From positions 3,424,001-3,488,000 of the forward strand of contig OZ242318.1 of the NCBI GenBank assembly GCA_965208105.1: a DNA stretch of 64,000 bases, read 5' to 3'. Source of the DNA: Candidatus Latescibacterota bacterium. GTDB taxonomy: Bacteria > Latescibacterota > UBA2968 > UBA8231. Within the stretch, counting starts at the first letter, position 1. Each line of letters begins with the position of its first letter. The translations under genes and the position numbers were made by a program. The notes beneath the pieces are model-generated. The model saw nothing but the letters and a program-made list of their open reading frames with translations. It was not told where the DNA came from and ran no database searches. Below, one piece after another: positions 20,557 to 23,255 of this stretch.

Positions 20557-20634
20557 TGGTGGGCGATGCCGGGCTCGAACCAGCGACCCCCTGCTTGTAA
20601 GGCAGGTGCTCTGACCAGACTGAGCTAATCGCCC
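20557..20634 (-). tRNA. tRNA-Val(TAC)
   Basis: GGGCGATTAGCTCAG...CCTGC-CTTACAA-GCAGG...GGTTCGAGCCC...ATCGCCCACCA with encoded CCA; upstream TTGATA-17-TAATTT. Confidence 0.96.
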
Positions 20635-22809: not shown

Positions 22810-22967
22810 TGAAGACCTGTCTTTTTTTGGTTGCGGCGAGAAGGCACCGCCGGGAGGATGGAAAAATTCAATAAACCGATGCTCAGACAGCAAGTCAAGG
22901 GGCCATGACCGCTGCGAAAGAGATATTGGACCCGTTCCGTGAAGGGTCGGGAATGGGCTTCGGCAGT

Positions 22968-23002
22968 AAAAAAACCGGGCGCACCCGCAGGCGCGCCCGG
23001 TT
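22968..23002 (-). terminator. Rho-independent terminator
   Basis: Minus strand CCGGGCGCGCC-TGCG-GGTGCGCCCGG followed by T7; the G-U pair works only on the minus strand. Confidence 0.8.
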
Positions 23003-23070
23003 AGCAATCAGGACGGCGGCCCGTAAAGGCCGGACGTCCCACCCCAGGTGGCGATCACCTGGATGTTGCT

Positions 23071-23109
23071 TCAGGTGATCCACCTCCCTGTGGTTGATTG
23101 ACTACTCAA
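23071..23109 (-). CDS. Candidate 12-aa micropeptide MSSQSTTGRWIT
   Basis: TTG start 7 nt after AGGAGG; TGA stop lies inside a hairpin. Confidence 0.35.
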   Translation of the reverse strand: MSSQSTTGRWIT

Positions 23110-23225
23110 TGGACCACCTCCTTTCTGTTGGGCAGGGGACGCGTGTTCAATCCGCTGCGCGTTGCGGTTGATTTACCTGCGGCCGTGGCCGCAGGGCGGT
23201 ACCATGTACCCGAAAATTTTAATGG

Positions 23226-23255
23226 AATATAGGTATTTCCCGGACCGGAATGCAA
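23226..23255 (-). promoter_or_regulatory. sigma70-type promoter of the small transcript
   Basis: TTGCAT-18 nt-TATATT on the minus strand. Confidence 0.5.

Follow-up and report, generated by a model that had tools for sequence, protein, structure and literature searches.

A strongly conserved small RNA element with a giant Shine-Dalgarno sequence: a probable new family and variant of the rre kind outside Alphaproteobacteria

To our knowledge, the rre-type mini-mRNAs are among the few cellular RNAs known to pair with the whole tail of 16S rRNA. One of these, rreB of Bradyrhizobium, is a 165-nt mRNA with a 17-nt Shine-Dalgarno (SD) sequence, a GTG start and a 14-codon open reading frame (ORF), which is found in the ribosome pellet and co-sediments with the 30S subunit, a binding for which the SD must have its 5′ extension (Hahn et al., RNA Biol 2017, PMC5711450). 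According to the same paper, rreB is weakly translated, replacement of its start codon stabilises the RNA from 10 to 37 min, and 20-fold overproduction leaves growth unaffected; analogues with 16-17 nt of complementarity are reported there only from four alphaproteobacterial orders, and the function is called elusive (PMC5711450). A literature search found no follow-up to the 2017 paper. Two other small RNAs, each the subject of an Rfam family, are relevant here. The Caulobacter sRNA CC2171 was confirmed by Northern analysis in Methylorubrum and has no known function (bioRxiv 10.1101/2022.01.24.477521). For the actinobacterial Ms_IGR-5, expression was seen in Streptomyces (PMC8079986, PMC8780764), and ribosome footprints on this RNA were recorded in M. 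abscessus and M. smegmatis (PMC4974804).

The element described here lies on the minus strand (23255-22968) of a 64,000-nt stretch of contig OZ242318.1 from a Candidatus Latescibacterota bacterium (hereafter the window, in which position 1 is the first nucleotide). It is real and strongly conserved, and probably represents a new family and a variant of the unexplained rre kind, outside Alphaproteobacteria. We consider it, with a probability of roughly 0.7, to be a stand-alone small mRNA of this kind, in which the functional unit is the RNA together with its translation and not the peptide. All features listed in a preliminary description of the locus (promoter hexamers, SD1, ORF, second SD, hairpins and terminator) were located on the minus strand by reading the sequence. 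The -35-like hexamer TTGCAT (23250-23255) is separated by an 18-nt spacer from the -10-like hexamer TATATT (23226-23231), and both motifs recur in homologues. A structured, GC-rich 5′ leader follows (23127-23219), its start near 23219 being deduced from the position of the -10-like hexamer. SD1, AGAAAGGAGGTGGTCC (23111-23126), is complementary over 16 nt, one of them in a G-U pair, to the free 3′ tail of 16S rRNA, and precedes the mini-ORF MSSQSTTGRWIT, which consists of 12 codons and a stop (23071-23109; TTG at 23109-23107, TGA at 23073-23071). Within the frame of the mini-ORF lie the second motif, GGGAGGTGGATC (23088-23077), and the internal GGAGG denoted SD2 (23083-23087), 9 nt 5′ of the stop codon. 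The intrinsic terminator (22968-23002) comprises a 13-bp stem (23002-22973) and a run of seven T residues that ends at 22968.

The single 16S rRNA gene of this genome ends in GGATCACCTCCTTTCT, and the 16-nt pairing with one G-U, as claimed in the preliminary description, matches the genome's own 16S end; the duplex reaches 17 nt if A23110 is counted. In a scan of GGAGG sites across the 4.85-Mb genome, pairing runs of 16 nt occur twice, in SD1 and in the antisense of the rRNA gene, and runs of 15 nt occur at five sites, one of them before a cold-shock-type gene. The predicted energy of the duplex with the 16S tail is -27.8 kcal/mol for SD1, compared to -8.7 kcal/mol for GGAGG alone and -17.6 kcal/mol for the SD2 region. 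The idea that the SD-like run arose by chance, or that the element derives from an rRNA operon, in which case the flanks should align with helix 45 of 16S rRNA or with the ITS, has nothing in its favour beyond the motif itself. The complementarity stops at the border of the free tail, the flanks are unrelated to 16S rRNA, and the element is conserved, with covariation, in 57 of the 63 genomes of the family, which renders this origin extremely improbable.

Two other sites of the genome, both outside the window, came to light in connection with long complementarity to the 16S tail. The SD of the cold-shock-type protein gene, at G000:C1 4462095 (+), is a 15-nt run that pairs with the tail, indicating that this organism employs long SDs for genuine genes, which are presumably highly expressed. 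At G000:C1 ~3902189-3902330 (+), AGAAAGGAGGTGGTGC, with a 14-nt run pairing with the tail, is followed by the 15-codon ORF MGRNRAVSDSIASVM and a terminator-like hairpin, an arrangement that resembles a second small mRNA.

Of 41 related genomes searched with BLASTN, 21 contain the element, including 18 of 24 from the same family. The 5′ leader is conserved within the genus only: the match in G001 covers query positions 21-293, and the matches outside the genus begin at the SD, about query position 132. A covariance model (R1) built from an alignment of 19 copies (A1), in which AAGGAGGTGGT of SD1 is invariant, matched 78 of the 151 genomes of the phylum sample. These include 57 of the 63 genomes of the window's own family, f1 (62-156 bits), and members of the sister families f3 (2/2), f4 (14/19), f2 (3/30) and f8 (1/5); in nine further families of the sample, R1 found no match among 31 genomes. 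The forms in the sister families are diverged. Most genomes carry one strong copy, and some have a weaker second copy. In addition, a pattern scan of named genomes yielded 77 loci, of which 54 are strong R1 matches, all from metagenome-assembled genomes (MAGs), titled Latescibacterota or Latescibacteria in 38 cases, Gemmatimonad- in 12, 'uncultured bacterium' in three and Handelsmanbacteria in one. Another 10 belong to Tsukamurella species (R1 scores of 28-43 bits), and the remaining 13 lack an R1 match and seem to be chance occurrences or other things.

Some of the more distant loci show peculiarities of their own. Two of the 13 loci without an R1 match, L092 and L142, come from MAGs titled Vallitaleaceae (Firmicutes lineage) and have a similar layout: after GAAAGGAGGTGGTGCCA comes an ORF of 15 codons that opens with GTG and has GGAGG 10 nt ahead of its TAA, and the bases immediately preceding this stop, CCTTTCAT, are complementary to ATGAAAGG at the SD; an R1 search of the Vallitaleaceae genome gave no match. 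At L062-L065 and L058-L061, which comprise second copies and members of family f4, palindromes such as CTGATCGATCAG or CTGTTGA..TCAACAG are found upstream, and a hairpin lies between them and the SD; the palindromes may be operator or promoter elements. The frame in family f4 ends in a tandem TGATAA, and copies with TGA changed to CGA end at the next codon, TAA.

The mini-ORF was analyzed in an alignment of 59 copies (A3), and the counts given here refer to the 57 distinct ones. In all 57, an ORF of 9-13 codons begins 5-10 nt past GGAGGT, with TTG as the start codon in 47 and ATG or GTG in five each, and ends in TGA (51), TAA (4) or TAG (2). When frames are counted from the conserved stop, a suitable start followed by an open frame is present in frame 0 in 57 of 57 copies, in frame +1 in five and in frame +2 in none. 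The internal GGAGG lies 9 nt from the stop in 53 copies and 10 nt in four (9-11 nt in the diverged families), and the combinations of start-to-GGAGG and GGAGG-to-stop distances fall into six classes (13, 16, 19, 22 and 25 with 9, and 21 with 10), all of which are in frame. The double-SD layout is conserved as well, with the ORF and an internal GGAGG near the stop kept in each of the 57 distinct homologues. The diverged relatives in f3, f4, f2, f8 and Tsukamurella and the second copies in f1, which were read by eye and not counted, follow the same plan: a strong SD, 8-15 codons, GGAGG or GGGGG approximately 9-11 nt before the stop and then a terminator, with a hairpin that bears the stop at or beside its loop and pairs this GGAGG in its lower stem.

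Whereas the RNA motifs, the frame and the position of the stop are kept, the peptide sequence varies widely, the lineages having such unlike peptides as MSSQSTTGRWIT, MESTGRSIT, MSSCIPAGGATT, MKETTTWRATA, MIATTRRWVV and MVNFRTEEVAAA. The conserved entity is the RNA layout, that is, the giant SD, the weak start, the GGAGG-stop spacing and the stop on a hairpin, and not the peptide. The preliminary description had considered a micropeptide mRNA, and a micro-ORF preserved in 57 of 57 copies fits this idea, as does the weakly translated rreB, the only characterised analogue. In its full form, the 12-residue peptide would be the effector, and the giant SD would merely tune its synthesis; the frame, start and stop kept in all 57 copies agree with such a gene, as do the MSS...T(G/A)GR(L/W)IT flavour that persists within the family and the conservation of the RreB and RreR peptides in their respective clades (PMC5711450). 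However, the peptide-as-effector part is weakened by the strong differences between lineages, with lengths from 9 to 13 residues, by the replacement of GR with GG where GGAGG is shifted by one base in the frame and the RNA motif itself is unchanged, and by the exact coincidence of the conserved C-terminal codons with the bases of the covarying hairpin. A micropeptide gene is accordingly an unlikely explanation. Two other coding possibilities were rejected. No start codon for a second ORF served by SD2 is available at a usable distance in the window, a TTG-led frame of five codons being present in one group only, and a 62-aa ORF (22895-23083) crosses the terminator and regions that are absent or contain indels in the homologues.

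The predicted fold of 266 nt has an energy of -127.2 kcal/mol, compared to -98.1 +/- 5.4 kcal/mol for shuffled sequences (z = -5.4). The arms of the first hairpin are GATCACCTG/CAGGTGATC, and the main hairpin pairs the second half of the ORF (SD2 and GGATCACCTG) with CAGGTGATC..CCACCTGG. Its 5′ arm (S2; SD2 and GGATCACCT), delineated by folds and covariation, occupies 23072-23093, its 3′ arm (S3), delineated by covariation, occupies 23040-23061, and the stop codon is located at the top of this covarying structure. In the main hairpin, 96.4% of the alignment cells are paired and 3 of the 13 pairs are changed on both sides; none of 500 shuffles reaches these values, and slid helices are 34-47% paired. 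The alignment used in this test was fitted to the model, and RNAalifold predicts the same helix independently. Compensatory changes are also seen in 10 of the 12 pairs of the terminator. The second hairpin, P3 (GGACG..GGCC/GGCC..CGTCC; 23011-23039), is present in the minimum free energy (MFE) folds and is missing from four A1 homologues (G009, G020, G006 and G022), and so is optional.

The GGATCACCT segment of the S2 arm repeats the 9 nt with which the 16S tail begins, and the same bases are able to pair with SD1. The last 8-10 nt of the ORF can pair with SD1 (AGGUGGUC..) over at least 7 bp in all 57 copies, and this SD1-to-ORF-end helix is the MFE structure of the 5′ part in most of them. The closed form, in which SD1 is paired, is predicted to lie on average 7.0 kcal/mol above the MFE (range 0-13.8; 3.3 in the window). 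In this helix, 89.9% of the cells pair, yet 240 of 500 shuffles do as well; since SD1 never varies, the helix displays no covariation beyond the shuffles, so that compatibility and energy are what the two-state model draws on. In folds of the conserved core, the 5′ extension of SD1 is unpaired with a mean probability of 0.58, compared to 0.40 for the GGAGG of SD1 and 0.37 for the internal GGAGG; SD1 is partly open in the predicted folds, and the 5′ extension is its most open part. The base of SD1 that forms the G-U pair with 16S rRNA shows a peculiar pattern, being G in every one of the 57 distinct members of the family and in 19 of the 21 Ms_IGR-5 loci, and the A that would yield a perfect 16S duplex never occurs in the family. 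In the cis helix, this invariant G is opposite U in 44 copies and opposite C in 13, and an A would mismatch in the latter because the cis partner is C; the ability of G to pair also with C in the cis helix is the only rationale found for its invariance.

The same segments allow for a dual-function sRNA, in which the anti-SD-like stretches CACCU and CCACCUGG would act in trans on the SDs of other mRNAs, being masked by the hairpin and exposed upon translation of the mini-ORF. The presence of two highly conserved anti-SD-like segments (CCACCTGG), the element's own terminator and its stand-alone context are compatible with such a role, but the segments are located within stems and not in loops, and the evidence fits purely intramolecular pairing equally well, which makes action in trans quite unlikely. 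A decoy role towards CsrA-like proteins or anti-SD sRNAs, also raised in the preliminary description, receives no hint from the present observations.

Several lines of evidence bear on the preferred reading of the element as an independent small mRNA. A scan with a consensus promoter found no site at the element, which is explained by the agreement of TTGCAT with TTGACA at only three of six positions. The case for a putative promoter of its own comes from the recurrence of TTGCNN-18-TATATT, 79-102 nt 5′ of SD1, in 8 of the 21 homologues with readable upstream DNA, and these eight represent five clearly different sequence groups. Two metatranscriptome studies (sponge and marine; four runs in total) contain contigs 92-214 nt long that fall on 22995-23192; the longer ones mismatch the window at 3/159, 4/171, 6/152 and 15/184 positions (92-98% identity), and in two further contigs the flanks resemble another homologue. 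These contigs attest to presence in RNA libraries, in which DNA carry-over is possible, and are silent on ends, strand and level. In runs X1, X2 and X4, contigs were lacking over the flanks of the element, to which no weight is given here. Together with the covarying terminator, the recurring promoter motif and variable neighbours, the contigs on the element are compatible with an independent transcript with ends that are deduced from the motifs. Thus, of the discrete transcript of about 255 nt put forward in the preliminary description, the presence in RNA libraries is substantiated, and the length is inferred.

In the window, the upstream neighbour of the element is a divergent gene for a PhyH/HEAT-repeat protein, and downstream an NAD-epimerase gene starts about 155 nt past the terminator on the same strand, followed by uxuA. 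This arrangement would suit a cis-acting leader or attenuator of the epimerase-uxuA genes, and an attenuator role was raised as possible in the preliminary description, but the suggestion does not survive comparison with other genomes. In other groups, the downstream genes belong to unrelated families, e.g., ADH_zinc_N, DAP epimerase and GH95, and at the loci L006, L007/L008, L014/L015, L017/L018, L020 and L021 the next gene is convergent, the convergent neighbours encoding a sigma-54 response regulator, a BFN nuclease-domain protein, a URO-D-like protein, an Na+/H+ antiporter and Reg_prop/Y_Y_Y proteins. Furthermore, the terminator is a separate hairpin, and no alternative pairing that overlaps it was seen in the folds; neither a fixed downstream operon nor a competing antiterminator is found. 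Given its own terminator, the varying flanks and the often convergent downstream gene, the element is a stand-alone gene and not the leader of a fixed operon, and a role in attenuation of the epimerase-uxuA genes is very improbable. At 2.3 kb downstream, past uxuA, lies a tRNA gene (window 20560-20634 on the minus strand; Rfam, 69 bits). In Bradyrhizobium, rreB also adjoins a tRNA gene (PMC5711450); this common proximity is probably a coincidence.

The closest characterised relatives of the element in kind are rreB and rreR, and the closest in layout is Ms_IGR-5. Like the rre RNAs, the element combines at least 16 nt of complementarity to 16S rRNA, including the SD, with an adjoining, very short, clade-conserved ORF. 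Each of rreB, rreR and the window element is a small mRNA that stands alone between its own promoter and terminator (predicted in the present case), has 16-17 nt complementary to the whole free 16S tail, shows a predicted fold in which the SD is paired in its 3′ part and remains free at its 5′ bases, and resides in a genomic context that is not conserved between clades. The conserved core of the element and its homologues is 135-178 nt long compared to 165 nt for rreB, and the tiny ORF has 9-13 codons compared to 14-18 in rreB and rreR. The start is TTG, one base after the edge of the complement, which contains one G-U pair, whereas in rreB the last base of the complement is the G of the GTG start. 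The relatives of the window element are MAGs titled Latescibacterota or Gemmatimonadota, in contrast to the alphaproteobacterial rreB and rreR. The text consulted on rreB makes no mention of a counterpart of the inferred leader of approximately 90 nt, of a GGAGG 9-10 nt from the stop, or of a stop atop a covarying hairpin. In addition, 30S binding was measured for rreB and is predicted for the window element, which is likened to rreB by layout and not by sequence alignment.

As for Rfam, a search that the preliminary description had recommended reported only the tRNA gene in the window at gathering thresholds, whereas a cut-off of E <= 10 added a weak match to CC2171 and noise; the element itself reached no family threshold in this window search. 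The best match is to RF01867 (CC2171), with 37.4 bits (E 3e-6) against a gathering score of 75, and the alignment is confident in the first ~27 nt (CAAC.A..GAAAGGAGGUG.UCCA.UG) and in the terminator. The middle of the element aligns poorly, and the Rfam consensus shows no internal GGAGG. By inference, CC2171 is probably a Caulobacterales member of the rre kind. The model of Ms_IGR-5 (RF02471; gathering score 45 bits) gave no match on the window at E <= 10. A Tsukamurella form scores 42.7 bits with this model, against the cut-off of 45, and 28-43 bits with R1, and Ms_IGR-5 is above the cut-off in 50 of the 61 genomes that were sampled from Tsukamurella's order (49 of 60 without the unpublished genome G162).

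The layout of Ms_IGR-5 was counted in the 21 of 24 loci that were parsed by script, three being unparsed. These loci have an extended SD, GGAGGTG(G/A)TCC, a 12-codon ORF in 21 of 21 and TTG as the start in 18 of 21; an internal GAGGTGG is found 11 nt 5′ of the stop, compared to the GGAGG at 9 nt in the window element, and the stop is mostly TAG, as opposed to the TGA of the window element and its homologues. An equivalent of the SD1-to-ORF-end helix, in which the 3′ part of the SD pairs with the end of the ORF, is drawn in the Rfam consensus of Ms_IGR-5. R1 recognizes canonical Ms_IGR-5 loci in the SD region only (9-18 bits), and therefore a shared design is claimed here and not common descent.

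If the element is, as we propose, a small mRNA of the rre kind that functions through the RNA and its translation, its operation could be envisaged as follows. Transcription would start at its own promoter and end at its own terminator, and the 16-nt SD1 would pair with the entire single-stranded 16S tail, gripping the 30S subunit much tighter than an ordinary mRNA. Capture of 30S subunits by the RNA, as suggested in the preliminary description, fits the evidence and the rreB analogue; the full tail duplex through which it would occur is a prediction, and the capture itself is proposed by analogy with rreB. Initiation at the weak TTG one base past SD1 would be inefficient. A ribosome that translates the 12-codon frame would cross the second GGAGG and then enter and open the hairpin with the stop codon at its top. 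With the stop in the A site, the internal GGAGG would be positioned 6-7 nt upstream of the P-site codon, and 6-7 nt is the usual distance between an SD and a start codon. The terminating ribosome could therefore re-pair its anti-SD, moving from SD1 to SD2. The last 8-10 nt of the ORF, which copy the start of the 16S tail, could have two alternative partners, the 3′ hairpin arm, which leaves SD1 free, or SD1 itself, which gives the closed form. A passing ribosome should therefore switch the RNA between a form that accepts 30S subunits and a closed form, and after termination the freed ORF end would either close SD1 or re-form the hairpin. Ribosome passage probably also sets the lifetime of the RNA, such that translation would gate both its state and its decay.

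In leader-peptide switches, such as trpL-type attenuators and ermC-type leaders, the occupancy of a short ORF by the ribosome picks one of alternative RNA pairings. The window element differs from these in having neither a controlled downstream gene nor evident regulatory codons, and its alternative pairings engage its own SD. The gain for the cell could consist in sensing free ribosomes, in parking 30S subunits or in exposing anti-SD-like segments. Simple ribosome titration is not favoured, given that 20-fold overproduction of rreB left the growth of Bradyrhizobium unchanged (PMC5711450).

A broader and more tentative proposition, which we regard as possible although improbable, is that the window RNA, Ms_IGR-5 and the alphaproteobacterial rre RNAs constitute a single class across phyla, made up of RNA switches that are gated by translation and serve to sense free 30S subunits or to park them. 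In such a class, each RNA would hold in cis one copy of a part of the 16S tail and one of its own SD, so that the ribosome, the SD and two decoys compete. A single pass of a ribosome over about 12 codons, at the end of which its anti-SD is re-paired with the internal GGAGG while the stop is read, would convert the RNA from one state, open or closed, to the other, and this change would set the lifetime of the RNA or return the 30S subunit to the start.

With the element described here, the rre design becomes a near-universal single-copy gene of an uncultured family whose genomes are titled Latescibacterota or Gemmatimonadota. The 12-codon ORF, the TTG start and the internal SD are common to the window element and the actinobacterial Ms_IGR-5. 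What appeared to be a curiosity of one bacterial class is thus turned into a widespread design with testable rules, and Ms_IGR-5 would provide cultivable models, mycobacteria and Streptomyces, in which the role of such RNAs at the ribosome may be addressed.
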